Shown here: piece by piece, positions 8,432 through 62,106 of the stretch | How the letters are laid out: every line of letters begins with the position of its first letter | How positions within the stretch are numbered: position 1 is the first letter of the stretch | Assembly: GCA_963666365.2 (NCBI GenBank) | Contig: CAXXNF010000002.1 | Span: 1,440,001 to 1,504,000, forward strand | Reading direction: 5' to 3' | DNA from: Syntrophales bacterium | Lineage (GTDB): Bacteria; Desulfobacterota; Syntrophia; Syntrophales; UBA2210 | DNA length: 64,000 nucleotides | Made by a program: the position numbers and the translations under genes | The notes under the pieces: generated by a model | Seen by the model: only the letters and a program-made list of their open reading frames with translations | Database searches by the model: none | Told to the model about the DNA's origin: nothing

Positions 8432-8434
8432 CCT

Positions 8435-8890: not shown

Positions 8891-8976
8891 GTTGCCTCTG
8901 AGGATTTGATTATTCCACCCCCTTCGGCGGCAGGTCTTTTAGAACCGCGGCACATCAATTTCTTCACCGTCTCCTT

Positions 8977-10257: not shown

Positions 10258-10280
10258 CGATTTGCCTCTTTTCTTCTCCT

Positions 10281-11621: not shown

Positions 11622-11824
11622 ACATCCTTTTTAAACCTACGGTGAGTTGCTTTCCATTATACTGCCGACCTGCCGGCATAATGGCTGCTTTTTACGAATC
11701 ATCATACATTCATTGCTTGCATAGCGCAGCAATTATTGATAAAAACGCAAAGTTTTTTTCGAATGCATACACCTATCAGTCAGCTATTACAATAGAACAA
11801 TAAAAAAATAGGAGAAGGAAAATT

Positions 11825-13006: not shown

Positions 13007-13008
13007 TG

Positions 13009-13989: not shown

Positions 13990-14056
13990 GGCAGTCTCCT
14001 CGTAAAAAATCTATTTTCGCCGTATAATTGACAGCCCGTCCCTCTCTCCGCACCCT

Positions 14057-14818: not shown

Positions 14819-14821
14819 TCT

Positions 14822-15481: not shown

Positions 15482-15516
15482 TAGTCCAAACTGCCATTTC
15501 TTTGATTACCTGTCTG

Positions 15517-43500: not shown

Positions 43501-44977
43501 GCTGACCCGGCCCGACGCCGATGTGCACGACACCGCCCGCATCACCGCAGAACTGTATTGCATCATTGATCAGGCCTTTGAAGAAGTCTACCGGCCGGTC
43601 AGGCCCCTGTCGAAGCCGATCGACCAGAATACGGTGGCACAGAACATCGGCAGTTTCGGAAAGACATCACAACATATCGAAGACAGGCTGCAGGGGAATC
43701 AGCCCCCGTCCCCGCGCGGCCGCCAGCAGGAAGCGGTGGAAGCCGAGAGCGCGTCGGAAAATGATACGACGCCCACCGACAGCCGCCCCCAGGGACAGCA
43801 GATCAGAGAGGCATCCCACCGGACCGGCGAAAGCCAGCGCACCTATCAAAGCGCATCGCCGGGCGGCAAGCAGGAATCGGGGGATGCCGACGACGCCCAC
43901 GAAAAAACCGAGTCCGCCGGCGGCTCGATGAAGTACGACTCCACCGACAAGATAGAACGGCTCCTGCGCTCCGCCTATCGGGAACGGGGAATTACCCCGA
44001 AGGAAATCGAACGAAGGATGGAATCGCTTCATCCGAATGAGATCTATCTGTTTCTCCATAATCTGGAGGCCTCGCTCAAGAAAAAAACGGAACTGGAACG
44101 TGAGCGGGGCACCACGCTCTATGCCGAATGGGGCGATGACATCAACGAGTATCGTGCCAACTGGTCGAGAATCAGGGAACAGTTGCACAAAAGCACGACC
44201 CTCGACTTCTACCGTGACGCGACGGACCGTCACGCGGGACTTCTCAAAAAAATCAGGCGCGAATTCCAGATGTTGAAACCGGAGGGGTTCAGCAGGCTGA
44301 AACGGCAGTATGACGGTGACGAGATCGATCTGGATGCGGTGGTCGAATATCTGGTGGATCGGAAGGTGGGACTGTCACCGTCGGAAAAGAATTACACACT
44401 GATCCGCAAAAAGCGCCGTGATATCGCCGTGGCCTTTCTTATCGATATGAGCCGCAGCACCAAGGGATCCACCATTGAAAAGGAGAAGGAATCGCTCATC
44501 ATCATGTCCGAGGCCCTCCACGAAGTGGGCGATGCCTTCGCCGTGTACGGATTCTCCGGCGACAACCGCGACAACGTGGATTTTTATCTCATCAAGGATT
44601 TTGACGAACCCTACAAAGATCGCGTGAAAAAGCGGATCTGCGCCATAGAGGACCGCTTCGAAAACCGCGACGGCACGGCGATCCGCCACACCATCAACAA
44701 GCTGCGGCGACGCCCCGAACGGACGAAGATGATCATTCTTCTGAGCGACGGCAAACCGGTGGACAAGGAATACGCGGGAACCTACGCCATCGAGGACACC
44801 CGCATGGCCCTTAAGGAGGCGCAGCGCTTCGGCATCAAAACTTTCTGCATCACCGTCGACAAAAGCGCCGCCGACTACCTGCCGCGCATGTACAGTCACA
44901 GCAGCTGGACCGTCATCGACGACGTGGTGAAACTCCCCGAGAAGATCACGCGCATCTATCGGATGCTGACCACATAA
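40565..44977 (+). CDS. NorD/CbbO-like VWA adaptor with long N-terminal helical repeat region
   Basis: C-terminal YAEW, GDEIDLDA, MIDAS DMSRST, RDGTAIRH, LSDGKP; about 770 aa of A..LLEKSP.II..IG.EGLE repeats. Confidence 0.9.
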   Translation: MTSDTTFKDGFGRPGRGRHIDEHYEAEVIARFGETLAPLIDRFGYEGIESIGLLVGRITQEDAPAALELLEQSPAIVEALMKQGEQLVLQVYGLGNQIAPYGSRLAVTFMVVSPRIMEKGDFDTLARVAGLAAETARTDAHTARALLEQSPGLIEAIGVAGLERVARYGMALARSSWMQAVKEVEKSLSRSDALVREGGLPFAHAVYHLASKIAEINWTHAVDLIEKSPAIARSFAPFGDAAYIADMYEQAGRAVHFGSKLPLALLEETPAILDRIGKEACDALWESALVIASGAPDEAAALIQQSPHLIDRLRPHMSIARVIRIYGLGNDLATQGATIARQFVAQCAALADRLSFDDMKELQAVTARIGSQSIAAAETFLERAPDLIDRVGMEDMEKVADLAIEVSRISWETASRLLAQSPAIIERLGLEGFTTIGRFSALLSRESWTSAVHLLEKCPAVVDGLLALGGGPLITRVCDLGERIADYNARLSVSLIDRSPHIIGKIGFTGLEKLEDLAHSIGKESWTTAVSLIEESSAIIERVGFEGLEVIAAVARRISRDNHYGAVSLIEKSPDLIDRLCTFGDATQALRVYALAEKAASSSWRTAATLLEKSPLLISMIGYEGLEKLSLLITEVAERNKKISTRILDLSPAIIDKIGYEGLEAVCGLVTSLSREEWTTAMSVIEKSPDLIEKLASFGDRNVPKQTFQLAAAAAVTSRPVALRLLEKSYELINLAGIEGFGKIAAHVVTVAGEDEEKALSFLRADSIEFADFMEHIPKGLELKEVRPLLSTYLRALLGRRVEIAEADTVSTDGIKIYLPRRVKEFRENEHNFTFYKVITTHQEAHLEYGSFEFDYRRIEDCAAAVTARYGAREETEGSDVERFFALFPEPDLAADLFNMAEDFRIESRLKREYPALGKEIARMNRHGLSKRSSLKKMTNQKQRAVEMVGRTLSAGSAFDDREDPTFTAWTEAVAGAEPLTRPDADVHDTARITAELYCIIDQAFEEVYRPVRPLSKPIDQNTVAQNIGSFGKTSQHIEDRLQGNQPPSPRGRQQEAVEAESASENDTTPTDSRPQGQQIREASHRTGESQRTYQSASPGGKQESGDADDAHEKTESAGGSMKYDSTDKIERLLRSAYRERGITPKEIERRMESLHPNEIYLFLHNLEASLKKKTELERERGTTLYAEWGDDINEYRANWSRIREQLHKSTTLDFYRDATDRHAGLLKKIRREFQMLKPEGFSRLKRQYDGDEIDLDAVVEYLVDRKVGLSPSEKNYTLIRKKRRDIAVAFLIDMSRSTKGSTIEKEKESLIIMSEALHEVGDAFAVYGFSGDNRDNVDFYLIKDFDEPYKDRVKKRICAIEDRFENRDGTAIRHTINKLRRRPERTKMIILLSDGKPVDKEYAGTYAIEDTRMALKEAQRFGIKTFCITVDKSAADYLPRMYSHSSWTVIDDVVKLPEKITRIYRMLTT

Positions 44978-45089
44978 CCCCGATGATTTCATTGAAGAAT
45001 AATTTTTTGTAACCCTGTTTTTTCTTGATATTCCCTCAATTTGTGATATTCTCAATTTTTAAATGATTACAAACTTAAAGGCACTGCAT

Positions 45090-45479
45090 ATGGACAAGAA
45101 GTCGCACAAAACAGCGCAGAGAGCAGCCATTCTGGAGTATTTACGGGGGAACACCGATCATCCGTCGGCCGCCCATATCTATGAAGCGGTTTCCAGGCAG
45201 CTCAGTGCGATATCGCTCACGACCGTATATAACACGCTGATGCATCTCGAAAGGAAGGGCCTGGTACAGGAAGTGCCTTCCTGCGGCAGTGCAGGGAAAC
45301 GATTCGATCCCAACGCGGCGCCTCACGATCATCTCATCTGCCGATCCTGCAACGCTATTTTCAATCTGGATCCTTCTCTTCGTCCGCCGATCGGCGCCGA
45401 GCATCTGCATGGATTCGATCCGAAGGATATCGTCATCACTGTGTACGGTCTCTGTCCGGACTGCAGTGGAACTGAATGA
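45090..45479 (+). CDS. Fur/PerR-family transcriptional regulator
   Basis: TAQRAAIL, HPSA, SLTTVYNTL, HDHLICRSC, GLCPDC; start 45063 or 45090. Confidence 0.93.
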   Translation: MDKKSHKTAQRAAILEYLRGNTDHPSAAHIYEAVSRQLSAISLTTVYNTLMHLERKGLVQEVPSCGSAGKRFDPNAAPHDHLICRSCNAIFNLDPSLRPPIGAEHLHGFDPKDIVITVYGLCPDCSGTE

Positions 45480-45596
45480 TAAACAGGGAATACAGAGCCC
45501 TTATTGTATGAACAACTGCGTACCGACTGACCATTCGATCGCGTTTTTTTCTTACAGGATAGAGCAATGTGCATACCTGTATGGAGGGGGGCCCAC

Positions 45597-48500
45597 ATGA
45601 ACAGACGCCCCTTCGGCGCTGCAAGAGCCTCAGTTGTCAAGACGGACCGCACACTGTCGATTCTCTGCGGGGGAGTCGATGCAGGCGATGATGCCCCCCC
45701 GCGGCGAACGTTGAAGCCGGGCATTCTTTTCTCTCTCCTGCTGGCGCTTTCGCTTTTACTCGCCCCCGCCACCCTTCATGCCGCCTATGTCAAACGGTAC
45801 ACGACGATCGCCAACGGCGCCATGACCTTCACGGGAAACGCCCTGGGGTTGAGCAAGGCAAGCAACTCCGACCGACCGGGCACAAACGGCTCAATCGGCA
45901 CATTCAGCACTACGGACACCTCGTTACGGGACAATAGCTACTGGCCCTACGGCACAACCGACAACTGGCAGGACAATTCCTCGTCCGCTCTGCTGACTAT
46001 GCCCGGCGGAAGCACGGTCCTCTATGCGGAGCTGATATGGGGAGGAAGCTACAATTACGGCGGCAGCAACGTGAGCTCCTCCCTGAACAACGCCGTCTCA
46101 CTTACCACGCCGCTGGGCGCATTCAGTATCAGCCCCTCATCCTCGACGGCGACTACGCTTACCGGCGACTACTACTATGTCCGATCCGCCGATGTCACCA
46201 GCTACGTCAAGGGCGCCGGCGCCGGCCTGTATACCGTGGGCGGCGTCCCCGGCACTCAGGAACGTAACGAAAACAACGCCAACGCCGCAGGATGGACGCT
46301 TGCCGTGGTGTACAAGAATACCGCCCTTCCCGCGAGAAACATGACCATCTTCGTGGGAGGAGAACTGACCAGCTCCTCTCAGACCACCACATCGTCCGTA
46401 AGCGGCTTCTGCACTCCGCAGTCGGGAACAATCAACGCCCGCATGATGGTGTCGGCTATTGAAGGCGATTCTAATCTGACGGGCGACCAGATGCGGTTCG
46501 GACCATCGACGGGAACGCTTTCTGCCGTATCGGGACCCAACAATCCTATCAACAACTTTTTCTCGTCCCAGATCAACAGCGACGACGGCACGCTGGACAC
46601 ATCCGGAACCTTCGGCACCCTTAACCACACACCCGGCTCAAACAGCAGCGGTCGCCGCCAGGGCTGGGACATCACCAACGTAGACGTTTCATCGCGGATG
46701 CAGAACAGCCAGAGCACCGCCTTCGCCCGGGGCACCACGAGTGGCGATCGGTATGTCATCACCACGATCGGCCTTCAGATCGATGTGGGACAGCCTGTGT
46801 TTCCCACTGCAGTGATGACCGTCGACAAACCCGTCACCTTTGTGGGAGACACGGTAACCTACACGACAACCCTCGACAATTCTGCGGGATCCGCCGATGC
46901 GCTGAATGTGGTTTTCACCGATTCGCCGCCTCCGGGCATGTCCTTCGTCACTGGCAGCGTCACAGTCAACGGCGTGCCTCAGCCGGGTGCGAACCCCGCC
47001 CTGGGCATTCCTCTCGGCGCCATCGCCGCAGGGAGCGTCGTGACGATCTCCTATCAGAAACAGGTCGATGCCGTCCCTTTGCCGCCTGCGCCCGCCGAAT
47101 ACGCCAACAACGCAACCTGGACCTACCAGTACGAAAGCTGCCCCAGTTTTCCCCTGAATAACGGGACGCTCTCCACTGCGCCGAATGTCATCAGTGTGGT
47201 GCCGCGCCTTGAACCGACAAAATCCGCCGATCCTCCCGGCGCCGTCCTGCCCGGCGGCGCCGTCACCTACACCATTACCATCCCCAATACGGGAACGGCG
47301 CCCACAGCCGGGACGACGCTCGCCGATCCTATTCCCACAGGAACCGCCTATGTGCCGGGAAGCACCACCATGAACGGAACACCGGTGGCCGATACGGCGG
47401 GACAAATGCCCTTTGCCGCGGCGCGCCTGGTGAACAGCCCCGGAGAACCGGCGGGACAGGTCAACATTGGAGAAGCCGCCGTGATTTCTTTTCAGGTGAC
47501 CATCAACCCAGATCCGCCACTGATCATTACCAACATCGCCACCATCGATCCCGACGGCGCCGGTCCCTCGCCTGCCATCGAAGTGCCCCTGACAAACCCG
47601 CCGGTACAGGCCGACCTCGCCGTGGCCATCACCGACAACCAGACGGAAGCCGTAGCGGGAGCACCGATTGCCTACGAGGTGACCGTCACGAATAACGGGC
47701 CTGATCGGGTAATCAGTTGCAATCTTTCGGTCCCCCTGCCCGACGCGATCATCAATGCCGCCTATTCAGCGAATGCAGGCGCCTACAACAGCCAGACGGG
47801 GGCATGGACGGGATTATCCCTGAACGCCGGACAAAGCGCCGTCCTCACCGTCAGCGGAAATGTCGCTCCTTCGGCCCTTTCGCCGCTTACGGTTACCGCA
47901 ACGGTCTCGCCTTCTCCGGGCGTCCAGGATGCGGCAAGCGGCAACAACTCGGCCTCCGACACCGACACGATCCTGTACCGGGCCGATCTCGCCGTGACGA
48001 AAACGGACGGCAAGGAGAGCGTCATTCCGGGAGAAACCATCACCTACACGATTACCGTCACCAACAACGGCCCAAGCCATGTCGAAGCCGTGACCCTTGT
48101 CGACACCCTGCCGGCACTGTTTCAAAGCCCCCTCTTCAATCCATCGGAGGGGGTCTACAACGAGGAAACGGGCCTCTGGTCCGGAATATCGCTTGAACCG
48201 GGAAGCAGCGTCACCCTCTCCCTGACGGGTATGGTGGATGAATCGCTCACAGGCGACCTTGTCAATACCGTCACCGTCACGCCGCCCGAGGACGTCGTCG
48301 ACCCGGAGAACGGCAATAACACGGCCGTCGACACGAATACGAGCAGCCCGCTTATGTCGCTTCATAAATATGTCGATCGGACGAACGCCGCGCCGGGCGA
48401 AAGTCTGCTTTACACGGTCCACTACCGTAATATCGGAGGAAGCCTGGCACAAAACGTTATTATTATAGATACCATCCCGCCCTACACACGCTATAAAGCG

Positions 48501-48701
48501 GGAACCCTCAAACGAGGTACGGCCAATTCCACCTACGGCGATCCCGCCAACCTGACCTTTACCGATGCAGTCGACGGCGACAAGGGCGAGGTGAGCGGCG
48601 CCAGCATTATTTTCAAGATCGATACCGTAGCGGCAAATGACGGCGCCGACGGCACCGGCGCCGATGAGGGAAAGGTGTATTTCGAGGTGATAATCGATTG
48701 A
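45597..48701 (+). CDS. Secreted multi-DUF11 adhesin with N-terminal DUF3344-like head (putative tip)
   Basis: Signal peptide ...LHA; YAELIWGG and GWTLAVVY head motifs; five DUF11-type repeats (GD/E.ITYT.T..N.G...D.LP); ends YFEVIID. Confidence 0.8.
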   Translation: MNRRPFGAARASVVKTDRTLSILCGGVDAGDDAPPRRTLKPGILFSLLLALSLLLAPATLHAAYVKRYTTIANGAMTFTGNALGLSKASNSDRPGTNGSIGTFSTTDTSLRDNSYWPYGTTDNWQDNSSSALLTMPGGSTVLYAELIWGGSYNYGGSNVSSSLNNAVSLTTPLGAFSISPSSSTATTLTGDYYYVRSADVTSYVKGAGAGLYTVGGVPGTQERNENNANAAGWTLAVVYKNTALPARNMTIFVGGELTSSSQTTTSSVSGFCTPQSGTINARMMVSAIEGDSNLTGDQMRFGPSTGTLSAVSGPNNPINNFFSSQINSDDGTLDTSGTFGTLNHTPGSNSSGRRQGWDITNVDVSSRMQNSQSTAFARGTTSGDRYVITTIGLQIDVGQPVFPTAVMTVDKPVTFVGDTVTYTTTLDNSAGSADALNVVFTDSPPPGMSFVTGSVTVNGVPQPGANPALGIPLGAIAAGSVVTISYQKQVDAVPLPPAPAEYANNATWTYQYESCPSFPLNNGTLSTAPNVISVVPRLEPTKSADPPGAVLPGGAVTYTITIPNTGTAPTAGTTLADPIPTGTAYVPGSTTMNGTPVADTAGQMPFAAARLVNSPGEPAGQVNIGEAAVISFQVTINPDPPLIITNIATIDPDGAGPSPAIEVPLTNPPVQADLAVAITDNQTEAVAGAPIAYEVTVTNNGPDRVISCNLSVPLPDAIINAAYSANAGAYNSQTGAWTGLSLNAGQSAVLTVSGNVAPSALSPLTVTATVSPSPGVQDAASGNNSASDTDTILYRADLAVTKTDGKESVIPGETITYTITVTNNGPSHVEAVTLVDTLPALFQSPLFNPSEGVYNEETGLWSGISLEPGSSVTLSLTGMVDESLTGDLVNTVTVTPPEDVVDPENGNNTAVDTNTSSPLMSLHKYVDRTNAAPGESLLYTVHYRNIGGSLAQNVIIIDTIPPYTRYKAGTLKRGTANSTYGDPANLTFTDAVDGDKGEVSGASIIFKIDTVAANDGADGTGADEGKVYFEVIID

Positions 48702-48717
48702 GCAAGGGGTGTAATGC

Positions 48718-49236
48718 ATGAATACCACAAATTTATTTCCAAGAGCGGCGCTCCTCTGCGCGTCTTTTCTCCTGTGCTTCCTTTCGGGAAGTCCTGCCTG
48801 GTCACAGGACGAAGCCAGGCTCGTTCTGAAGACGGAAGCAGCCAAGGAGATCAGGGTGAAAGAAGGAGCTGTCTGGGTCGTAAAGTACGAGCCGGTAACC
48901 GTGACAAAGCCGGGGGACATCCTGCGGTATACGGTTGCCTATCACAACGAGGGAAACGCTCCGGCAGTGGGCGCCCGTATCGTGGATCCGGTCCCGAAAG
49001 GAACCGTCTATATCATGGGAAGCGCCGCCGGCGCCGGGACGGCGATCCGATTCAGCATCGACGGCGGGGCGACCTGGCAGGCGCCCCCGGTGATGCATGT
49101 GGTGCGGAAACCCGACGGAAGCGAGAAAAAAGAGCCGGCCCCGCCGGAACTCTTCACCCATATCAGGTGGTCCCTGACGGGAGAGGTGCCCGCCGGCGGT
49201 TCCGGCAGTGTGCATTTCAAGGTCACCGTGCAGTAA
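48718..49236 (+). CDS. Small secreted single DUF11-like domain protein
   Basis: Signal peptide ...AWS; PGDILRYTVAYHNEG, DPVPKGTVY, FSIDGG, ends FKVTVQ. Confidence 0.8.
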   Translation: MNTTNLFPRAALLCASFLLCFLSGSPAWSQDEARLVLKTEAAKEIRVKEGAVWVVKYEPVTVTKPGDILRYTVAYHNEGNAPAVGARIVDPVPKGTVYIMGSAAGAGTAIRFSIDGGATWQAPPVMHVVRKPDGSEKKEPAPPELFTHIRWSLTGEVPAGGSGSVHFKVTVQ

Positions 49237-49308
49237 AAGGTGGAAATCGTATGAGATTTCCATTGGATATACATTAGTTAACATTACATGAAGGGGAGGT
49301 AACAAGTC

Positions 49309-51057
49309 ATGCGTAGAATTCTCTTAACCATGGTTGTTGTTGCAGCGGCCCTCACACTGTGCTGGTCACAGGCGGAGGCCGCGGGAACTCCGGTCAACAC
49401 ATCCATCACCAACCAGGCCTATGCCGATTACAAGGACGCCAACGGCAACGACCGGCCGCGGGTCACCTCGAACACGGTCACCACCGTGGTCAGCCAGGTG
49501 GCCTCCGTCTCGAGTACTCCGGCGACGGCCTCACACAACGGCATCGCAGGCACCGATGTGGAATATCCGGCGGAGATCTGCAATAAGGGGAACGGGTCAG
49601 ACACGATCACCCTGGCAGCGGTAAACGACCAGGGATGGACTGTCACGATCTATCCCGATCTCAACGGAAACGGCGTGTGGGATTCGGGCACCGAAGGCAC
49701 GCCTGTGGCAAATACGGGATCGCTGGCCGCCGATCAGTGCTATAAAGTGATCGTAATGGTGTCCGTACCGGCAGGGACGGCAAACGGGACCATCGGCACG
49801 ACCACGCTCACCGCCACATCCACCTATAACGGTACCGTATCCGACACGTCCGTCTTTACGACTAACGCCCAGTCGGCGGTGCTCACACTTATAAAATCGG
49901 GCACGCCGGCCAATCCGAAACCGGGCGATACCATTACCTACGCGATCACCGGCAGCAACAGCGGCGGCACCGCTTACAGCGTCCGCGTCATCGACGCCAT
50001 TCCCGCCAACACCACCTACGTGACGGGGAGTATGAAGGCCGGTCCCGTGGGGGGCGAGTACGCCACTGCCTATGCAATGACGGATGCGAACGATTCGGAA
50101 AATCTGACCTACACGGTGGGGGCCGACACGGCGATCGCCAATGCCTACTATGATTCGGGCGCAACACAGATTCAGCTCGACTGGTCCCAGTGCCCTCCGG
50201 CGGGGGTCTTCTACTTCCAGGTAAAGGTAAACAGCGACGTCGCCTCGGGGACGGGCATCACCAATACGGCCACGGCCTCTTACGGCCTGCTCGACAACGG
50301 ACTGCGCCCCTACACCGAATCGACCAACGGCGCCACAGTCACCGTGGCCACCCTGCCGGGTGTTGATCTCTATTCCGACGGAACCGGCACGGGCGATCCC
50401 GGCGACCAGATGGTCTACCCCTTTACCGTCAAAAATACAGGAAACGCCACCGACACCTTCGATTTCACCTACACCTCGTCGGCGGGGTGGACCTGGGTTA
50501 TCTGGCGGGATGTGGACGGCAACGGCATTCCCGGCACCGATGGCGATGTTGCCGTCACCGATTCGGGCGATCTGGCTGCCGGGGCAACGGGGTCGTTCCT
50601 GGCCGTCGCCACCATACCGGCCGGCCAGGCTGACGGGACCGTCGACACCGTGGTCGTTACCGGTAAATCCCGCATCGACACGGGCGTAAGCGACACGGCC
50701 ACCTTCGCCACCACCGTCACGGCGCCGGTGCTGACCATCACCAAGACCGTGTCCCCCACGGGGAATCAGCCTCCGGGGACGGTGCTCACCTACCAGGCGA
50801 CGGTCACGAATGTCGGCACGGGCGTGGCTACAAGCATCATCATTGCCGACATGGTGCCCCAGTACACCACCTATGTGGCGGGCTCCATCAAAACAGGGGG
50901 CACGGCAGGCTCGCTTGTCGCACGGACCGACGCCTCCGACGGCGACGGCGGCCGCTACGACGCGGGGACCAACGCCGTCACGGCGGGAGGAGCGGGCGTG
51001 CTGAGCCTGGGGGCCGGCGGCACCTGGGTGCTGGAGTTCAAGGTGACCATCGACTAA
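49309..51057 (+). CDS. Secreted DUF11/Ig tandem protein (putative major pilin)
   Basis: GGGGAGGT RBS; signal peptide ...AEA; AGTPVNTSITNQA start; internal duplication; ends FKVTID. Confidence 0.8.
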   Translation: MRRILLTMVVVAAALTLCWSQAEAAGTPVNTSITNQAYADYKDANGNDRPRVTSNTVTTVVSQVASVSSTPATASHNGIAGTDVEYPAEICNKGNGSDTITLAAVNDQGWTVTIYPDLNGNGVWDSGTEGTPVANTGSLAADQCYKVIVMVSVPAGTANGTIGTTTLTATSTYNGTVSDTSVFTTNAQSAVLTLIKSGTPANPKPGDTITYAITGSNSGGTAYSVRVIDAIPANTTYVTGSMKAGPVGGEYATAYAMTDANDSENLTYTVGADTAIANAYYDSGATQIQLDWSQCPPAGVFYFQVKVNSDVASGTGITNTATASYGLLDNGLRPYTESTNGATVTVATLPGVDLYSDGTGTGDPGDQMVYPFTVKNTGNATDTFDFTYTSSAGWTWVIWRDVDGNGIPGTDGDVAVTDSGDLAAGATGSFLAVATIPAGQADGTVDTVVVTGKSRIDTGVSDTATFATTVTAPVLTITKTVSPTGNQPPGTVLTYQATVTNVGTGVATSIIIADMVPQYTTYVAGSIKTGGTAGSLVARTDASDGDGGRYDAGTNAVTAGGAGVLSLGAGGTWVLEFKVTID

Positions 51058-51090
51058 GGGGCCGACAAGGCCGGTGAGAGAGAAGACGCT

Positions 51091-54000
51091 GTGACGAAGA
51101 AGATGCGGCGGAATACTACGCATTTTGTCCTTTACTGGTGCATACTGATGGTGTGCCTGTGGCACGCCTGCACCGGAGGGACACCTGCGTACGCCGCATC
51201 GCCTCCCGTCGGCACCGCCATCACGAACCGCGCCACCGTCGCGTACCACGACGCCAACGGGAACCTGCTGCCCGAGGCAAGCGCCACCGTGTCCACCATC
51301 GTTTCCGGCGCACCGGTGCTTGCCGTCACGAAAACTGCAAGCGCCGATATCGTCAGCGCCGGCGATTTACTGACCTACACCATCACCTGTGAAAACAGGG
51401 GGAATGCCGACGCCCTTTCGACGGTCGTCGTCGATCATCTGCCCGCGGAAGTGATTTTCCTCAGCGCATCGACCGGCGGCGCCTACAGCTCAGGACCGCC
51501 GGCAGGCGGCAGCGTCGCATGGAATCCGGGAACCCTCGCGGCCGGTGAACGCATTTCCCTCTGGGTCGAGGTACGGGTAAAGGCGGGTCTCGCCGTCGGT
51601 ACGATGATAGACAATACCGCCGACATCACCTCGGCCGAGGGCGCATCGGCGGCGGCGGCACAGTCCGCACGCGTGGGGTTCGCACCGAATCTTTCCATCA
51701 CAAAATCCGCTGTACAGGGCACGGTCACACCGGGAGGGACAATCACCTATACCATCGACTACAAAAACAGCGGGAATCAGACCGCATCCTTCGTTTCCAT
51801 CGGCGACACGCTTCCCGCCGGTACCACCTATGTTGACGGTTCTTCCACGGCAGACGTCACGGTCAAGGGCGGTCTGCTCTCATGGTCCATCGGATCGATA
51901 CCGGCCGGTGTGCAGGGGTCGGTCACTTTTCAGGTAACGATATCACCGGCGGCCTCTGAAGGCGACATGGTGCGGAACACGGCCGCGCTGACCAGCAAGG
52001 AAGGGGGCACCATTTCGTCAAATACGGTCGCCACCGCCGTGGTCGCATCTCCTCCGCTGATTGTGGCTAAAACGGGAGTCCCCGATCCGGTGCGGGCAGG
52101 AGATACCATTACCTATACCATCGTGGTGACAAACGGCGCGTCGACTCCCGTGACGGGACTTCTCATCACCGATCCACTGCCGGCACATACCGCCTTCGTC
52201 AGCGCCGACGCGGGAGGCGTCCTCAGCGGCGACAGCGTCGTCTGGTCCGCGGGAACACTCGCGGGAGGGGCGTCAACGACGGTCAGACTGGTGGTGCAGG
52301 CGCTGCCGTTCAGCGATCCCAATCCCGTCATTGCCAACAGGGTCTCGGCAGCGGCCAACGAGGCGCTTCTGCAGACGGCCTCGACCACGACCTCCGTCAT
52401 CTGCCGCACTCCGGCGGCGATACGCTTTCTTGATGCAGCATCGACGCCCACGAACCGGTATTCCGTGGGTGACATGATCTGCATGGAAGTGTCCGATCCC
52501 GATCAGAACCGCGATCCCCTCACGGCGGAGACGGTCACGGTCCGCATCACGACATCCGGCACCGGCGACGCGGAAACGATCATCCTCACGGAAACAGACA
52601 TCAATACGGGCGTATTCCACTCATGTCTGCCTTCCGATACCGGACCCACCGTTCAGCAGAACGGCATCCTCACCGTAGCTTCCGACATCACCGTCACGGT
52701 AGCCTACGAAGATCCGCTGGATGCCCTCTGCGGATACCAGGCGGAATCGACGGCCGATGTCCTGATCGACCCCTTCGGCGTCGTCTTCAATTCCATCACC
52801 GGGCTTCCCGTGGCCGACGCCACGGTCACCCTGATTGACGATGCCACGGGACTGGCGGCGGCGCTTCCGCTCAACCCGAAAACCGGCGCAGTTCAGCCCA
52901 ACCCGGTGGTCACAAAGGCGGACGGCGCCTTCCAGTTTGAATACGTCAGCCCGGGAACCTATCATTTTACCGTCGGCACGCCTGCAGGCTACCTGTGGCC
53001 CTCGGCCGTGCCCAATACGGAGCTGCGCCTGTCCTGGCCCGCTTTCGTCATCGACGACAACGGCTCCAAGGGTGAATCCTTCACCCTGACCGCCGCCTCT
53101 CCGCCGCTCAACATCGATCTGCCCCTGGATCCTCCCGGCGGATCCTTCGTGGTTGAAAAAACGGCGGACAAGAGCGCTGCATCCGTAGGCGATCTGGTAC
53201 AGTACACGGTGACGGTCTCGAACAACGGCGCCTCTCCTATCGGATCGATTGCCGTCCATGATGCCATGCCGCACGGCGTTCGGTATCTGAACGGCTCATC
53301 GCGCCTCGGCGGGGTGAAGATCGCCGACCCGGTTCCCACCGCCGGAAGAACGGTCATATGGAACATTCCCGCACTTGCACCGGGGGATGCGGCGGCGATT
53401 ACCTTCAGGGCCCTTGTCGGTCCCGACAGTCATCGGGGCACGGGACGAAATACGGCATGGGCCTCGGGAACGACCGTGGGCGCCGCGGTGTCTTCCAGCA
53501 TTGCCACCCACGACCTGAAAATCACCGAGGGGGTATTCACCTCCAGGGCGATCATCATCGGCAAGGTCTTTATCGACAGCGACGGAAACGGCCTTCAGAC
53601 AAACGACGCGGTCAGCGCCGAAACGACATCCGGCGGCGGCGCCACAGAACAATGCCATAACGAACCGGGCATTCCCGGCGTGGTCCTCTACCTGGAAGAC
53701 GGCACCCGGGTGATCACGGATCAGCACGGCAAATTCTCCATCCCGGGCGTTGCGCCGGGCACGCACGTTCTGCGGGTCGATACATCGTCACTGCCGGAAG
53801 GGGTCGAGCTTACGGCCTCATCGGGAAGATCCATGGGAGACGGCACGTCGCAGTTTATCTCTATAGGCTACGGCAGTCTCTTTAAAGCGAATTTCACGGC
53901 CCGCATGCGGGAGGGAACAGATTTCACCGCACTGCGGATTCAAAAACAGACGATCCTGAAGCCGGACCGCCCAACGGGCGCATCGGGCCGTTCCGGCGCC

Positions 54001-54294
54001 CCGGCTTCGATCACGCAGGCGCCGGAGCCCGTCGAAACAGGGACGGTTCTTACCGACACGCCGGCGGCCGCCGGCGCGAAGGCGGTGCATTCGGAAGAGA
54101 GTCCCGCTCCTCACACCACACCTCCCCTTGAGGAGCGCATTCTCACCATGTCGAAGGAACTCGCCTTCGTCAGCCCCGTCGACGGCGCTATCATCGCCGG
54201 CGATTCCACCGCCGTGGTGATCAAGGCGCCGGCAGGATCGACGCCCGCCCTTTCCGTCAACGGGCGCACCATCGGCAATGATAAAATCGGTTAA
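51091..54294 (+). CDS. N-terminal half of large DUF11/SdrD-B-like surface protein (frameshifted)
   Basis: Signal peptide ...AYA; four DUF11 repeats; DPFGVVFNS...G.PV domain; IIGKVFIDSDGNG...EPGIPGVVLYLEDGT; stops mid-domain at IGNDKIG*. Confidence 0.8.
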   Translation: MTKKMRRNTTHFVLYWCILMVCLWHACTGGTPAYAASPPVGTAITNRATVAYHDANGNLLPEASATVSTIVSGAPVLAVTKTASADIVSAGDLLTYTITCENRGNADALSTVVVDHLPAEVIFLSASTGGAYSSGPPAGGSVAWNPGTLAAGERISLWVEVRVKAGLAVGTMIDNTADITSAEGASAAAAQSARVGFAPNLSITKSAVQGTVTPGGTITYTIDYKNSGNQTASFVSIGDTLPAGTTYVDGSSTADVTVKGGLLSWSIGSIPAGVQGSVTFQVTISPAASEGDMVRNTAALTSKEGGTISSNTVATAVVASPPLIVAKTGVPDPVRAGDTITYTIVVTNGASTPVTGLLITDPLPAHTAFVSADAGGVLSGDSVVWSAGTLAGGASTTVRLVVQALPFSDPNPVIANRVSAAANEALLQTASTTTSVICRTPAAIRFLDAASTPTNRYSVGDMICMEVSDPDQNRDPLTAETVTVRITTSGTGDAETIILTETDINTGVFHSCLPSDTGPTVQQNGILTVASDITVTVAYEDPLDALCGYQAESTADVLIDPFGVVFNSITGLPVADATVTLIDDATGLAAALPLNPKTGAVQPNPVVTKADGAFQFEYVSPGTYHFTVGTPAGYLWPSAVPNTELRLSWPAFVIDDNGSKGESFTLTAASPPLNIDLPLDPPGGSFVVEKTADKSAASVGDLVQYTVTVSNNGASPIGSIAVHDAMPHGVRYLNGSSRLGGVKIADPVPTAGRTVIWNIPALAPGDAAAITFRALVGPDSHRGTGRNTAWASGTTVGAAVSSSIATHDLKITEGVFTSRAIIIGKVFIDSDGNGLQTNDAVSAETTSGGGATEQCHNEPGIPGVVLYLEDGTRVITDQHGKFSIPGVAPGTHVLRVDTSSLPEGVELTASSGRSMGDGTSQFISIGYGSLFKANFTARMREGTDFTALRIQKQTILKPDRPTGASGRSGAPASITQAPEPVETGTVLTDTPAAAGAKAVHSEESPAPHTTPPLEERILTMSKELAFVSPVDGAIIAGDSTAVVIKAPAGSTPALSVNGRTIGNDKIG

Positions 54295-57220
54295 AACGGT
54301 GACCCATAGTAAAGGAAAGGTTGCCCTCTTCGAATACATAGGGGTGCCTCTCGATCCCGGCGCTCCCAATGTGCTGACCGTCTCCGTGACGGATCCCTTC
54401 GGGAACAGGCGAGGCAGCGCGTCCGTCACCGTCGAGACCGTCGGCGAGGCGGATCGCATTCTTCTGTCGGCGGATCGCGAAGAGGCGCCCGCCGACGGTA
54501 ATGCGACGATTGAGGTCACCGTCTCAATCGTCGACCGGAAAGGGCATCCCGTCCCCTACGCGGCGCCGGTCACGGTAATCGTCACCCCGGGAGAAATCAT
54601 TACCGAAGACGCCGATCCTTCGACAGAGGAAGTGCAGATTGCCTGCACAAAAGGAACCGCCCGATTTAGCGTTCGGGCACCCCGCACCTCCGGCGAAGGG
54701 AACATCAATGTCTACGCCGATGCGCTGGAAGGAAGAATGAATGTCTTCTTCTTCCCCTACCTGCGCGACCTCTTTGCCGTCGGTATCGGAGAAATCACCA
54801 TCGGCCACGGCTCGACACGAGGCGATTTCGGCTACCTCAAAGACGGCAAGTGGTTCGATGATGATCTCTACGGCGGCGCCCGGGGCGCCTTCTTCCTGAA
54901 GGGAAACATTTATAAGGACTATCTGCTCACCGCCTCCTTCGATTCAGAAAAGGAAGAGGAGGACGAACTCTTCCGCCAGTCCGACACCGACATTGAGTCT
55001 GAGGACAAGTATCCTATTTACGGGGACGAGAGCACCCTGGGCTATGAAGCTATGTCGAAGGACAAGCTCTACGTCAAGGTGGAAAAAGGTCGGTCGTCGC
55101 TGCTCTACGGCGATTATCAGACGAATCTCAACGACACGGCGCTCGCCTCATACCAGCGATCGTTCAATGGACTGAAGCTCGACCTCAACACGGATCGCTT
55201 CAAACTGCGCGCCTTCGGCAGCGAAACCGATCAGACCCAGGTCGTGGACGCCCTGCCGGGACGCGGCATTTCGGGATATTATTATCTAACCCACCGGCCG
55301 GTCATCTCCGGGTCGGAACGGGTCGTCATCGAGGTGCGGGACCGGCTGCGCCCCGACCGCGTCCTCTCCCGCGAAACCCGTGCACGCGGCAGCGACTACG
55401 ACATCGATTACGATGCAGGAACCATTCTGTTCAAGGAACCGATCCCCATACGGGACAGCGACTACAACCCCGTCTATGTCACAATCAGCTATGAAGCGGA
55501 AACGGGGGGAGAAGACTATTACATTTACGGCGGGCGAGGCGCCTTCAAGGTTCTGCCCTGGCTCGAAGTGGGCGCCACAGGCATCGTGGAAGAGCAGGCC
55601 GCCGGCGATTATACGCTTTTCGGCGGAGACGTCACGTTGACGCTTCCGGGCAATACGACGGTAAAGGCCGAATACGCCGAAACGCGGGCACTGTTCGACA
55701 TATCGAATGCCATGGTAAGGAAATCCGGCGGCGGCTGGTCCTTTGAGCTCGAATCATCGCCGATAGACCGGCTTGTCCTGTCCGGCTACTATAAGAATCT
55801 GGACGACTATTTCCAGAACATCTCCGCCACCGATGCACCGCGGGGCGTCGAAAAATACGGATTCGACGGCCGCTTTGCACTGACCGACCGCATCGAATTG
55901 AAGGGAACCTTCTTTGATGAAAAGGACAAACTGAATCATTCAAGCCACAGTTATGCCTCACTGGGAGCCCAGGCCCGGCTGGGGAAAACAAAAATCACCG
56001 CGGAACTTTCAAGGGAAACCTCCGACGATCAGTACATACCGGCCACGAGCGATTCGACGAGAAGCCCCTTCGACATGAGCGAGGAATCGCCGCGTGAACT
56101 CACGGCCGCCGGCGTCGCCCTTGAAACGGAGCTTCGCCCGAACCTGTCCCTTACCGTGGGGCACAAGCGCAACATAAAGGACGAAAACCTCCACACCTCC
56201 CAGGTAGGGCTCAACTATCAGATCAGCGAGCTCAATCGCCTCTATGTGAGGGAGGAGTACCAGAAGTACAGTGAACGGACCGAGCTGAGAACCCTCTTCG
56301 GCGTGGAATCGAAGGTCATCAAAAACACCGTCGCCTTCAATGAATACCGCCTGGTGGACGGATCGGACAGTTCCCGCAATCAGCAGGCCATCGGCCTTCG
56401 GAACAAATTCCTCCTGGCCGATCATCTGACGGGAAACCTTTCCGTCGAATACCTGAGCACCCTCTCGGGAGAGGCGAAGGAGAGCGAACCGGACGCCTTT
56501 GCCCTGGCCACGGGACTGGAATATCTCCCCCGGGATGATTTCAAGGTAACGGGACGTTTCGAACACAGAAACGAACTCTCCGGCGACGGCATCGACAGCT
56601 ATCTGGGCGAATTAGGGCTTCTGCTGAAAATCACGCCCAGCTACTCGCTGCTGGCCAAGGAACGGTTTTTTTATGAAACAAGCGGCATAACGGGCGCCCA
56701 CACCAGCTCACGCACCATGGTGGGACTTGCCTGGCGGCCCCTCTGCGACGACCGGTTCAACGGCCTTGCGAAAGCGGAATACAAGGTCGACGACAACGGC
56801 ACGATTGATCCGGATTATAAAACCACGGCCTTCATTCTATCTACAGAAGGTGTCTACCAGGTAAACAGCCGGCTCCAGCTTTCGGCCAAATACGCGGGGA
56901 AACTGTCGCGCGACAGCGAGTATTCCTCCTACACGGACCTCCTTTCGGCACGGATCATCTACGACGTGACGGACCGCATCGACCTCGGGGCCGAGTACAG
57001 AGTGCTGACAAGCCATAAAATCGGAAGCACCCTTCAGGGAGGAAATCTGGAAGTCGGCTATCGGGTGGTCAAGAACCTCTGGGTCTCCCTGGGCTATTCC
57101 TTCGACGACTTCGATGCCGATCTCATCGGCGACGACTACCAGGGAAGAGGGCCCTATGTAAAACTCCGCTTCAAGTTCAGCGAAGACTCCATAAAAAACC
57201 TCTTCAAAAAGAAAAAATGA
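54278..57220 (+). CDS. C-terminal half: Ig domains + large outer-membrane beta-barrel
   Basis: No signal peptide or RBS; PADG invasin-like Ig; GAFFLKG, YPIYGDES; long run of amphipathic strands ending YVKLRFKF + tail; joins the upstream ORF if one T is removed. Confidence 0.8.
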   Translation: MIKSVKTVTHSKGKVALFEYIGVPLDPGAPNVLTVSVTDPFGNRRGSASVTVETVGEADRILLSADREEAPADGNATIEVTVSIVDRKGHPVPYAAPVTVIVTPGEIITEDADPSTEEVQIACTKGTARFSVRAPRTSGEGNINVYADALEGRMNVFFFPYLRDLFAVGIGEITIGHGSTRGDFGYLKDGKWFDDDLYGGARGAFFLKGNIYKDYLLTASFDSEKEEEDELFRQSDTDIESEDKYPIYGDESTLGYEAMSKDKLYVKVEKGRSSLLYGDYQTNLNDTALASYQRSFNGLKLDLNTDRFKLRAFGSETDQTQVVDALPGRGISGYYYLTHRPVISGSERVVIEVRDRLRPDRVLSRETRARGSDYDIDYDAGTILFKEPIPIRDSDYNPVYVTISYEAETGGEDYYIYGGRGAFKVLPWLEVGATGIVEEQAAGDYTLFGGDVTLTLPGNTTVKAEYAETRALFDISNAMVRKSGGGWSFELESSPIDRLVLSGYYKNLDDYFQNISATDAPRGVEKYGFDGRFALTDRIELKGTFFDEKDKLNHSSHSYASLGAQARLGKTKITAELSRETSDDQYIPATSDSTRSPFDMSEESPRELTAAGVALETELRPNLSLTVGHKRNIKDENLHTSQVGLNYQISELNRLYVREEYQKYSERTELRTLFGVESKVIKNTVAFNEYRLVDGSDSSRNQQAIGLRNKFLLADHLTGNLSVEYLSTLSGEAKESEPDAFALATGLEYLPRDDFKVTGRFEHRNELSGDGIDSYLGELGLLLKITPSYSLLAKERFFYETSGITGAHTSSRTMVGLAWRPLCDDRFNGLAKAEYKVDDNGTIDPDYKTTAFILSTEGVYQVNSRLQLSAKYAGKLSRDSEYSSYTDLLSARIIYDVTDRIDLGAEYRVLTSHKIGSTLQGGNLEVGYRVVKNLWVSLGYSFDDFDADLIGDDYQGRGPYVKLRFKFSEDSIKNLFKKKK

Positions 57221-57377: not shown

Positions 57378-57710
57378 ATGCGAAAACGGTTGTTCCTTCT
57401 CTTTGCGGTGATCGCTCTGTTGCCGGCCGGTCTCTCCCAGGGGCGGCTCGCCTTGGAACCCTGCAGCGCTTACGCGGACCTGAACTGCGCGGTCTGTGAG
57501 TGGGTGATGGCCGAGGTGGACAAGTGCCCAGGGGCGACCAGGGAACAGATCGCGCAGTGCCTCGACCGCTCCTGCGCCTTCCTCCCGTACAGCGTCAGGA
57601 CCCTCTGCGATTCCTTCGTGAAGACCAAGGGCCCGCAGTGCGTGGACCTCCTGGTCGCGAAGGTCCCACCGGAACAGATCTGCACCTCGGTGGGCTCCTG
57701 CACCAAATAG
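57378..57710 (+). CDS. Secreted saposin-like (SapB-type) protein
   Basis: AAAAGGAGA RBS; signal peptide; C37-x2-C40...C66-x2-LP...C77-x2-FV...GP...P-x2-IC102-x5-C108 saposin spacing. Confidence 0.8.
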   Translation: MRKRLFLLFAVIALLPAGLSQGRLALEPCSAYADLNCAVCEWVMAEVDKCPGATREQIAQCLDRSCAFLPYSVRTLCDSFVKTKGPQCVDLLVAKVPPEQICTSVGSCTK

Positions 57711-57818: not shown

Positions 57819-58418
57819 ATGCCGAAGGATCATGCCACCCTGATGCACGAAATGCGGGATTACGCCTCGCCGAAGGCGCGTCTGACGCGGATGATCAAGT
57901 CGGGCGAGCTAATCCAGGTGCGCAGGGGGATATTTCTGGAGAAAAAAGAAACAGGATATTCCCTCAAAAGTCTCGCGTCAATCATCTACGGCCCCTCCTA
58001 TATCTCCTTTGAATACGCCCTGGGCCATTACAGGCTGATCCCGGAACGGGTTCAGGCCGTCACCTCGGCGGTGTACAACAAAAACAAGAATCGCCGCTTC
58101 CATACTCCCCTGGGCGATTTTTACTACTATTATCTTCCGGCTAAGGTCTTCCCCTATGGTGTCGTCCTGGGAGAGGAAAACGGCCAGCGCTATCTGATGG
58201 CCACGCCGGAAAAGGCGCTTTGCGACAGTCTCTACAAAACGCGGGGCATCGGCAGCGTGAAGGCCCTCAAGGCTCTGTTCTTTGAGGACTGGCGAATGGA
58301 ACGAGAGGCTGTCCTTTCCCTGGACCGGGAGAGCATTCTTTTTTTGGCCCCCCTGTACAGAAAGCAGATTTTCCCGCTGCTTCTGAATTGGTTGGAGGAC
58401 GAGGCGAATGATGCATAG
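57819..58418 (+). CDS. AbiEi-family type IV antitoxin
   Basis: wHTH LIQVRRGIF, PSYISFEYAL..Y.LIPE, ATPEKALCD. Confidence 0.88.
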   Translation: MPKDHATLMHEMRDYASPKARLTRMIKSGELIQVRRGIFLEKKETGYSLKSLASIIYGPSYISFEYALGHYRLIPERVQAVTSAVYNKNKNRRFHTPLGDFYYYYLPAKVFPYGVVLGEENGQRYLMATPEKALCDSLYKTRGIGSVKALKALFFEDWRMEREAVLSLDRESILFLAPLYRKQIFPLLLNWLEDEANDA

Positions 58419-61914: not shown

Positions 61915-62106
61915 AGAGTCCTCCTTGATTCTCACTTCACAAAAAAAAACATCTACCTATATTGACATGGAAAAACGCCGGTTCGGAAGAACCGGCAACA
62001 GATACGGAATGACAATGGCTGAAATTATCTTCGAGACCTTTCCCAAAGTCAAATGCTTTTTATACGAGGCTTTTTTTGGTACTGTGAAATGCATCACATG
62101 CTAATA

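Follow-up and report, generated by a model that had tools for sequence, protein, structure and literature searches.

How might a bacterium with two membranes link immunoglobulin-like (Ig) surface proteins into a covalent fibre when its genome offers neither a sortase nor a chaperone and usher to do so? The question is raised by an operon in the 64,000-nucleotide stretch of Syntrophales DNA analysed here (the window; contig CAXXNF010000002.1 of assembly GCA_963666365.2, positions 1,440,001 to 1,504,000). Five co-oriented open reading frames (ORFs) of 1044, 172, 582, 1067 and 980 amino acids fill positions 45567-57220 of its forward strand. They probably encode a surface fibre in which subunits are joined head to tail, each completing a split CLIPPER (DUF11) domain of its neighbour. 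The junctions are probably locked by isopeptide bonds, and the chain is rooted in an anchor protein with an outer-membrane barrel.

The evidence is computational and of four kinds: the split termini of the proteins, the conservation of the residues that would form the bond, the predicted fit of the two parts, and the synteny of the genes. The covalent bond itself, the length of the polymer, the polarity of its growth and its route of export are inferred from these.

Organization of the operon

PF01345 (DUF11) matches the 1044-residue protein (E = 9.9e-66; 219.6 bits against a cut-off of 24.6), the 582-residue protein (E = 3.3e-11; 43.9 bits) and the protein starting at 51091 (E = 5.6e-64; 214.0 bits). 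The 172-residue protein scores below this cut-off (23.4 bits), yet it passes that of the NCBIfam model TIGR01451 (37.5 against 24 bits). DUF11/TIGR01451 repeats are found in ORFs one to four. The fifth ORF consists of an Ig domain of the Big_1/invasin kind and about 800 further residues that have only a weak porin-like match. The NCBIfam model RrgB_K2N_iso_D2 also matches proteins of the operon. The parts, named for the roles proposed for them, are as follows.

45567-48701 (+): tip protein, 1044 amino acids from the first ATG (1034 from the gene-caller start at 45597); signal peptide, head of about 340 residues (72-412), five DUF11/CLIPPER domains and no N-terminal donor hairpin, according to the ORF, Pfam and the triad scan
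48342-48698 (+): last CLIPPER domain of the tip (residues about 926-1044), with Lys934 and Asp968, ending YFEVIID; no closing strands and no Asn; acceptor only
48718-49236 (+): small secreted protein, 172 amino acids, one truncated CLIPPER domain with Lys43 (conserved ..KE[IV]) and Asp90 (DP[IV]P), ending HFKVTVQ; acceptor only
49309-51057 (+): pilin, 582 amino acids; signal peptide, donor hairpin, Ig domain, complete CLIPPER domain (K196/D229/N319), Ig domain, truncated CLIPPER domain
49381-49494 (+): donor hairpin of the pilin, residues 25-62, AGTPVNTSITNQAYADYKDANGNDRPRVTSNTVTTVVS, with the Asn35 codon at 49411-49413, from conservation and the predicted interface
50716-51054 (+): acceptor domain of the pilin, residues 470-582, with Lys479 at 50743-50745 and Asp514 at 50848-50850, ending EFKVTID
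51091-54294 (+): N-terminal part of the anchor, 1067 amino acids, donor only, fused to the barrel in relatives; signal peptide, surplus donor hairpin, complete CLIPPER domains each with its own Asn, and SdrD_B/CarboxypepD_reg-like Ig domains
51196-51309 (+): donor hairpin of the anchor, residues 36-73, beginning ASPPVGTAITNRATVAYHDANGN, with Asn46 at 51226-51228
54221-57220 (+): C-terminal part of the anchor, frame open from 54221; the ATG-initiated ORF, 54278-57220, has 980 codons
54291-54292 (+): frameshift, one extra base at GGT/TAAAAC by comparison with intact relatives
54440-54757 (+): Big_1/invasin-type Ig domain next to the barrel, residues 55-160 of the 980-residue ORF, from Pfam Big_1 and Invasin_D3 matches below their cut-offs and from a structural match
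54773-57178 (+): predicted giant outer-membrane beta-barrel, residues 166-967 of the same ORF, from an AlphaFold2 model

A domain divided between polypeptides

DUF11 has been renamed CLIPPER and solved as 9IFR. It adopts a CnaA-like fold of nine strands in which Lys715 of the first strand forms an isopeptide bond with Asn806 of the penultimate strand, with Asp748 adjacent (PMC12617251). A first-pass annotation of the window, made from the sequence alone, had classed these domains as CnaB, a label that has to be withdrawn in view of this fold and of a bond that joins first and penultimate strands. Its description of the piece absent from some domains as the last two strands is exact, given an Asn on the penultimate strand (PMC12617251).

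Assignment of the operon proteins to this family is supported by profile comparison. The pilin family profile aligns its K196/D229 region with the Lys/Asp region of 9IFR (E = 0.0011), and aligns the internal domain over its full extent, including the Asn strand, with EbpB, a sortase pilin. Phmmer finds no match to the single pilin sequence among PDB sequences. A fold search of the PDB with the pilin model returns generic tandem-Ig proteins (PrgB, integrin alpha legs, antigen I/II) at template modelling scores of 0.2-0.3, and is silent on whether domains are completed in cis or in trans.

Every sequence string on which the first-pass annotation built its case is present in the ORFs of the window. 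Three proteins stop right after the F strand of a CLIPPER domain: the tip (...KVYFEVIID), the small protein (...SVHFKVTVQ) and the pilin (...WVLEFKVTID). The missing piece forms the mature N-terminus of two proteins, the pilin (AGTPVNTSITNQAYADYKDANGN) and the ORF that begins at 51091 ((A)ASPPVGTAITNRATVAYHDANGN). Both of these donor starts follow cleavage sites of the Ala-X-Ala type (...ITNQAYADYKDANGN... in the pilin and ...ITNRATVAYHDANGN... in the anchor). A complete internal domain, FYFQVKVNSDVASGTGITNTATASY, is found in the pilin as well. The DUF11 profile, which has 114 positions, covers only positions 2-57 in the last domain of the pilin and 11-57 in the small protein.

Searching the proteins for each element of the triad (Lys strand, Asp motif, Asn strand) gives the same bookkeeping. 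Internal domains carry all three elements, for example K196/D229/N319 in the pilin and K81/D115/N175 in the anchor. The terminal domains of the tip, the small protein and the pilin have Lys and Asp without an Asn strand in the same chain. The pilin and the anchor have a surplus N-terminal Asn hairpin, although each of their own complete CLIPPER domains has its own Asn. Because the tip and the small protein are acceptors without a donor, and the anchor is a donor without an open acceptor, these parts can be satisfied only in trans. Together with the survey of loci described below, the scan bears out the roles first proposed for an acceptor-only tip, a pilin that is both donor and acceptor, and a donor-only barrel protein. 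The original list of parts was incomplete in that it gave the small protein no role.

The pilin is an internal duplication. Its two halves show 34% identity in an alignment of 283 residues (E = 3e-29), both end on an F strand, and the N-terminal TSITNQAYADY is matched to the internal TGITNTATASY. The repeat unit consists of the last two strands of one domain, an Ig domain, and a CLIPPER domain minus its last two strands. This alignment indicates that the polypeptide is cut out of register with its domains. The junction between two subunits would therefore copy the junction that exists inside one subunit. The duplication also leads one to expect the acceptor domain for the N-terminal hairpin to be separated from the remaining chain by the first Ig domain.

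Conservation and covariation of the triad

A database search with the pilin returned 418 relatives, the best 120 of which were examined; 87 could be placed in an alignment with identities of 42-82% and a mean column identity of 45%. The three residues that would meet across the junction, Asn35, Lys479 and Asp514, are invariant in these 87 proteins. In the internal triad only Asp229 is invariant, and Lys196 and Asn319 are nearly so. The N-terminal hairpin with its Asn is present in all 120 of the best relatives and the F-strand end in 118, the other two appearing truncated or frameshifted. Conservation of the donor Asn and of the acceptor Lys and Asp, on which the original proposal depended, is thus borne out in these relatives.

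Anchor donors are somewhat more variable. A donor hairpin is detectable within the first 150 residues of 105 of 120 anchor relatives, with Asn in 99, Ser in five and Asp in one. The other 15 comprise six with a visible Asn motif that the model missed, four with His, two with Ser, one (P0226) with a divergent motif that lacks Asn, and two without an N-terminus. In the surveyed loci, Asn is present in 47 of 47 pilin donors and in all 35 anchor donors detected by a hidden Markov model (HMM). The acceptors of these 47 pilins have Lys and Asp in 32 cases and Thr and Asn in one, and in 14 the Lys column is left unaligned by the HMM. MAFFT recovers the Lys in 13 of these 14; L097 was left out of the MAFFT alignment.

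A two-gene variant of the system provides covariation. It consists of an acceptor-only protein of 435-600 amino acids followed by an anchor with an OmpA domain, and is carried by Geomonas and Geomesophilobacter (L022-L029, about 8400-16000 per locus) and by metagenomic relatives, as well as by L062-L072. Its tip has Glu at the Lys column and Ser, Ala or Asn at the Asp column, and its anchor donor has His at the Asn column. Replacement of Lys and Asp on one polypeptide together with Asn on another argues that the triad is assembled in trans. The variant also represents a natural non-covalent, or differently bonded, counterpart of the system in cultured bacteria.

Predicted fit of hairpin and open domain

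A complex was predicted between pilin residues 345-582 and 25-190, each with the 87-row alignment, in three runs with three controls. The interface score ipSAE is 0.85 in all three runs, as against 0.01 for the best control; in the calibration of the score, 116 of 157 solved complexes attained the mark used, as did 2 of 215 mismatched pairs. The runs share at least 99% of their contacts, and the predicted local distance difference test score (pLDDT) of the partner is at least 92. Donor residues 33-47 and 52-64 face acceptor residues 471-481, 485-499 and 505-515 (also 575-582), so that Asn35, Lys479 and Asp514 all fall inside interface stretches. The expectation that the hairpin completes the C-terminal domain is therefore matched by the model, as a prediction made with cut fragments.

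The pilin monomer is modelled with a pLDDT of 88.3 and a predicted template modelling score (pTM) of 0.59. The sole stretch with a pLDDT below 50 is a hinge at mature residues 162-167, which links the first Ig domain to the internal CLIPPER domain.

Gene order and distribution

Relatives of the pilin occur in 8 of 401 sampled genomes of the phylum (7 of 255 genera), with the genome of the window included. The order tip, small protein, pilin, anchor, complete or as far as the contig extends, is found in five genomes, and the order pilin, anchor, tip in two genomes of one genus. A metagenome scan with a single barrel peptide pattern gave at least 591 stretches and at least 565 confirmed barrel relatives, from which 80 loci were kept. 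A barrel match is present in 95 loci, 23 of which are cut or have no upstream sequence, leaving 72 that are informative. A pilin with both donor and acceptor lies directly upstream of the anchor in 46 of these 72. Among these 46, the small protein precedes the pilin in 37, and a tip gene is found further upstream in 20 and downstream in 12. Tip and anchor alone make up 19 of the informative loci, and the remaining 7 are of other or fragmentary arrangement. The gene order seen in the window thus recurs in genomes and metagenomes, as the first-pass annotation had anticipated.

Pilins fall into size classes of 337-409, 578-658 and 874-1124 amino acids, corresponding to about one, two or three repeat units. 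Relatives come from sources labelled Syntrophales, Desulfobacterales, Lentisphaerae, Latescibacteria and Betaproteobacteria. According to these labels, the cultured Desulfatibacillum aliphaticivorans is among the carriers.

The small protein is a single truncated CLIPPER domain with a hairpin inserted after its first strand. Both Lys and Asp are kept in five of the six copies from genomes and, when all distinct copies are counted, in 22 of 34, and the copies without Asp belong mostly to a clade with pilins of about 900 amino acids. In the clade of the window, the small protein should take up a donor hairpin irreversibly, which makes it more plausible as a cap, or as a minimal form of alternative tip, than as a chaperone that is recycled. 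On sequence grounds, a role for the 172-residue protein as cap or alternative tip is possible. Its role may differ in the clade with longer pilins, where it could be, for example, a non-covalent binder. Upstream of a pilin of about 900 residues, a small ORF without the catalytic Asp and without an F-strand end is seen in L075, L082, L086, L094, L097, L100 and L109.

The head domain of the tip (45780-46802, +, residues 72-412) is 54-85% identical in the best 120 of 725 matching proteins. It has no match in Pfam (E = 0.1 at best) and no sequence match in the PDB. Among those that share it are Ig-like and 'tandem-95 repeat' proteins from Priestia megaterium and Paenibacillus, and others labelled Armatimonadota and Burkholderiales. 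Judged by these sequence matches, the head appears to be an unusually conserved, unnamed module common to several phyla.

The anchor, its barrel and the frameshift

The fourth and fifth ORFs of the operon are parts of one gene. Relatives of the 980-residue ORF are single proteins of about 2000 amino acids with DUF11 repeats in front, and their consensus runs straight across the junction of the 1067- and 980-residue ORFs. One extra base is present at GG(T)TAAAAC (54291/54292) relative to two intact relatives with 92% and 70% nucleotide identity. These observations combine into a single anchor gene of about 2040 codons. The barrel protein proposed at the outset therefore does have a donor N-terminus and a barrel, but is not encoded by a single ORF in the window.

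The 980 C-terminal residues of the anchor are modelled by AlphaFold2 with a pLDDT of 83.3 and a pTM of 0.77. DSSP places three of the long strands ahead of residue 222 and 32 beyond residue 398, with a beta-rich insert between the two groups at about 264-390. The barrel, at about residues 166-967, is estimated from this model to have roughly 35-40 strands. The preceding Ig domain (residues 55-160) resembles invasin, intimin and GH2 Ig domains with structural Z scores of 12-15 and a root mean square deviation (rmsd) of about 2 Å. Foldseek and VIA-align comparisons of the barrel return only generic large barrels at similar low scores (SlpA, MtrB, LptD, FimD, SprA, TonB-dependent receptors and porins). 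For example, FimD matches with Z = 14.0 over 353 residues (rmsd 8.5) and SprA with Z = 14.0 over 609 residues. The search identifies no specific family and excludes none.

Two further observations bear on orientation. Some distant anchor relatives add a C-terminal OmpA domain, which places the end of the chain in the periplasm and the N-terminal stalk outside. Omp85 is encoded in the genome, which indicates a diderm host. The barrel is the only conserved outer-membrane component of the system and may for this reason also serve as its export pore, for which it is the sole candidate.

The split anchor gene raises the possibility that, in this genome, the operon is a decaying remnant from which no fibre is rooted or exported. 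The extra base is what speaks for decay, and it may be either a real mutation, with which the system may be inactive here, or an assembly error. The other genes are intact, and the two anchor ORFs remain open over 1067 and 980 codons. Runs X8 and X9 of the same sample yielded nothing for the stretch. The two contigs of X1, the sole run that contains it, end and begin exactly at 54291/54292, with word depths of 2.7 and 4.2. This break hints at a branch or ambiguity among the reads at a homopolymer-like site, and at such low depth it fits sequencing or assembly ambiguity, or polymorphism, equally well. Decay in this genome is a reading to be taken seriously, though it is the less probable one.

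Proposed mechanism of assembly

In the proposed mechanism, the acceptor is a terminal CLIPPER domain that has the Lys of its first strand and the catalytic Asp but lacks its last two strands. After cleavage of the signal peptide, the N-terminus of the donor would consist of those two strands, with Asn on the penultimate one. The donor hairpin of one subunit would insert into the open domain of the previous subunit. Insertion would bring Lys, Asp and Asn together as in an intact CLIPPER domain, and an isopeptide bond between Lys and Asn would probably form autocatalytically. The outcome would be a covalent chain made without a sortase.

The distal end of this chain would be either the tip, with its conserved head, or the small protein acting as a cap, both of which are acceptors only. 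The shaft would consist of n copies of the pilin, which offers both a donor and an acceptor. At the base, the N-terminal hairpin of the anchor (about 2040 amino acids) would close the chain, and its Ig stalk would run to the outer membrane, where its barrel of about 35-40 strands would sit. Export of the fibre might also be a function of this barrel, and the chain could grow either from its base, in the manner of chaperone-usher pili, or from its tip.

A more far-reaching version of this model can be offered tentatively, and as a whole it is rather doubtful. The operon would then represent a new diderm pilus pathway in which a natural split CnaA-type domain, comparable to SpyTag/SpyCatcher, polymerises subunits covalently without a chaperone, an usher homologue or a sortase. 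The giant anchor would combine the functions of usher, terminator and anchor. Its barrel would pass folded, cross-linked subunits, with folding and bonding acting as a ratchet in a periplasm that has no ATP. The anchor hairpin would finally plug the last pilin and the stalk would follow through the pore, leaving an unbroken covalent chain from the tip to the membrane, and the small protein would be a dedicated cap controlling the number of chains that start or end.

Alternative explanations

Several observations weigh against a covalent fibre assembled in trans. The complex was built from cut fragments and speaks for a fit between hairpin and open domain, but not for a fit made between two subunits. 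The prediction may also simply rebuild an intact CnaA-like domain that is familiar to the model. In the monomer model the N-terminal hairpin is placed confidently (block pLDDT 77-94), as it would look if it folded back in cis. The covariation of the triad most likely reflects a single evolutionary event in one clade. Individual loci depart from the rule: the pilin acceptor of L108 has Thr and Asn while its donors keep Asn, the anchor donor of L093 has Ser while its pilin keeps Lys and Asp, and the small protein of L020 lacks both Lys and Asp. Small proteins of the clade with pilins of about 900 residues lack Asp, and six of eight also lack the F-strand end. An acceptor domain that is missing two of its nine strands should need stabilising before assembly, and no chaperone is evident. 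Finally, the pilin family is patchy, as its presence in 8 of the 401 genomes indicates, and the anchor gene is frameshifted in the window itself.

Strand complementation could operate without yielding a long polymer. Units would then pair one to one or form very short chains, giving a modular fibrillar adhesin with a tip or cap and one or a few pilins on the anchor stalk. In favour of this, nothing can polymerise in the 19 of 72 informative loci that have tip and anchor only. The anchor already has an Ig stalk of about 1000 residues, and the pilins of one, two or three units look as if length were tuned by the gene rather than by copy number. Nevertheless, assembly into short chains only is unlikely: the donor and acceptor of the pilin fit each other in the prediction, no sequence feature limits n, and a separate cap gene beside the tip gene is more sensible if chains need terminating.

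Complementation might instead be purely non-covalent, with Lys, Asp and Asn kept for packing or folding. The triad positions are those of the solved bond in 9IFR (PMC12617251), and the triad assembled in trans is invariant where two members of the internal one, K196 and N319, are not. The two-gene clade can be read both ways. It presumably functions without the triad, having Glu, Ser and His in its place, but it has also replaced all three residues, Lys, Asp and Asn. Some small proteins without Asp likewise fit a non-covalent mode, and it is established that fibres of the chaperone-usher, type V and TasA kinds need no covalent links for their stability (see also PMC9715654). On balance, an assembly without any covalent lock is quite improbable.

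Complementation in cis, in which the pilin hairpin closes its own C-terminal domain to form a looped monomer and the other proteins are independent adhesins, is very improbable: it would suit the confident hairpin and single low-confidence hinge of the monomer model, and a 'closed' monomer form has been described for a model of the archaeal TafA subunit (PMC11821415), but it leaves the tip and small protein without a donor and the anchor without an open acceptor, does not account for a two-gene variant in which the triad positions lie on two proteins and are all replaced, and conflicts with the duplication, which puts the partner domain of the hairpin across the first Ig domain from the remaining chain. 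A closed pilin monomer could still be a transient storage state that precedes exchange between subunits.

Comparison with known systems

The fibre proposed here, a chain of split CLIPPER domains completed in trans, shares features with several known systems. It combines a logic and polarity like those of chaperone-usher pili, domains and a covalent shaft like those of sortase pili, and strand donation with isopeptide bonding like that of BsaA and archaeal threads, and is a member of none of these groups.

The first-pass annotation had held that no sortase and no homologue of PapC or PapD takes part, and the genome, which is 94% complete, supports this. It contains no match to sortase (PF04203; controls positive), none to an usher (PF00577; E. 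coli control positive) and none to a PapD-type chaperone (PF00345, PapD_N; controls positive). The same annotation had suggested that no characterised system has this architecture. Searches of the open-access literature of PubMed Central and bioRxiv turned up no description of a split or intermolecular CLIPPER domain, or of the operon. The architecture is undescribed to that extent, but the principle has precedents in BsaA and the archaeal threads.

In chaperone-usher pili such as Fim and Pap, an N-terminal extension completes the incomplete Ig fold of the previous subunit, and ushers are barrels of 24 strands. The resemblance extends to a tip adhesin without a donor, a shaft subunit with both parts, a chain-terminating last subunit, and a large barrel in the outer membrane. 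Completion of a fold by a neighbouring strand is indicated in the operon by the prediction, the termini and the duplication, with two strands donated instead of one. In contrast, barrel and last subunit form one protein in the system of the operon, with a barrel far larger than that of an usher, and a covalent lock is probable. The likeness of this barrel to FimD (Z = 14.0) is no better than its likeness to SprA or to porins.

Sortase pili (EbpB, RrgB) likewise have Ig pilins of the CnaA/CnaB type with Lys-Asn isopeptide bonds, a covalent shaft, and tip and base subunits. The operon differs in that its subunits would be linked by the domain's own chemistry and in that its host is a diderm. Its proteins stop at the F strand and so have no sorting signal of the LPXTG type.

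Operon proteins share with CLIPPER proteins the domain family, the positions of the Lys/Asp/Asn triad, and the tandem arrangement of domains in stalks of Gram-negative surface proteins (PMC12617251). However, in CLIPPER fibrillar adhesins the bond lies within one domain of one chain, whereas the terminal domains of the operon are split over two polypeptides (PMC12617251). The triad is contained in one chain in the internal domains of the operon and is not in the terminal domains of the tip, the small protein and the pilin. The words 'split' and 'truncated' do not occur in the available part of PMC12617251, and no split or intermolecular CLIPPER domain is mentioned there. DUF11 domains that lack the bond are catalogued in Table S2 of that paper, possibly with some bearing on how frequently Asn-less terminal domains have been recognised.

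The closest precedents for the principle are two sortase-independent fibres. In Clostridium perfringens BsaA, a TasA family protein, 'donor-strand exchange and lock' has been described, in which an N-terminal donor Asn enters the neighbouring subunit and is locked by an acceptor Lys and an acidic residue (PMC11580942, preprint). BsaA needs no sortase, and the mutants N35A, K74A and E56A lose oligomers (PMC11580942). As described, this system has a TasA-like fold, a Gram-positive host, the signal peptidase SipW, secretion linked to type IV pili, and no tip, cap or barrel anchor, unlike the operon (PMC11580942). The operon proteins have no match to a TasA/camelysin-like fold, their Pfam matches being DUF11-related and other Ig families only. 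The threads of Sulfolobus acidocaldarius (Saci_0406) are built by donor-strand complementation with a proposed intermolecular isopeptide bond and no known sortase (PMC9715654). In these threads, the bond joins the N-terminal alpha-amine (Asp24) to Asn57 of subunit n+2 (PMC9715654). They are archaeal, with neither a Pfam domain nor an outer membrane.

Three other systems are more distant. SpyTag/SpyCatcher is an engineered split CnaB2 domain that captures its own last strand as a peptide and forms an isopeptide bond by itself (PMC6539128). It is man-made, CnaB-based and joined by a Lys-Asp bond, whereas the operon would hold a natural split of a CnaA-like domain that serves polymerisation. Type V pili of Bacteroidota (FimA, Mfa1) likewise rely on Ig-like strand exchange at a diderm surface and end in an anchor subunit. 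They are made from lipoprotein precursors by protease-triggered exchange and have a C-terminal donor; that of the operon is N-terminal, and the operon includes no protease gene. No lipobox Cys was seen at the cleavage site of the operon signal peptides that were read, which are of the Ala-X-Ala type. Type Va autotransporters have a 12-strand barrel (PF03797), for which Pfam finds no match in the operon, as compared with about 35-40 strands over 800 residues; only the order of passenger and then barrel is alike.

If the proposed mechanism is correct, diderms of several phyla make covalently linked surface fibres that fall outside the known pilus classes, and the self-made isopeptide joining of Gram-negative pilus subunits becomes directly testable. 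The hairpin (residues 25-62) and the open domain (470-582) of the pilin would constitute a second, natural and orthogonal tag/catcher pair, and the whole pilin a self-polymerising covalent protein material. The mechanism would also raise the problem of how a single barrel protein exports and roots a fibre. The two-gene variant, lacking the triad, gives a ready-made point of comparison between covalent and non-covalent versions.

Neighbouring genes

The operon is flanked by genes for a VWA protein, a Fur-family regulator, a saposin-like protein, AbiEi/AbiEii and a Kelch/PKD protein, which appear to be without relation to assembly. Upstream (40565-44977, +) is a 1470-residue protein that has repeats of about 35-40 residues, judged by eye, and a C-terminal VWA domain. 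The Fur-family regulator (PF01475, E = 2.3e-22; 45063-45479, +) is the next gene upstream of the operon, has the same orientation and could couple expression of the fibre to metal or peroxide status. A scan for promoters and terminators is uninformative, giving 8 sites where 4.8 are expected.

Just downstream of the operon, an AbiEi-like antitoxin is paired with an AbiEii nucleotidyltransferase toxin (57819-59298, +). A secreted Kelch-propeller/PKD protein follows on the opposite strand (59392-61935, -). Neither this protein nor the VWA-repeat protein is kept beside the system in other loci. Between the operon and the toxin pair, positions 57378-57710 (+) encode a secreted protein of 110 amino acids that carries a saposin-like domain (SapB_2, E = 2.2e-06), an unusual find in bacteria.

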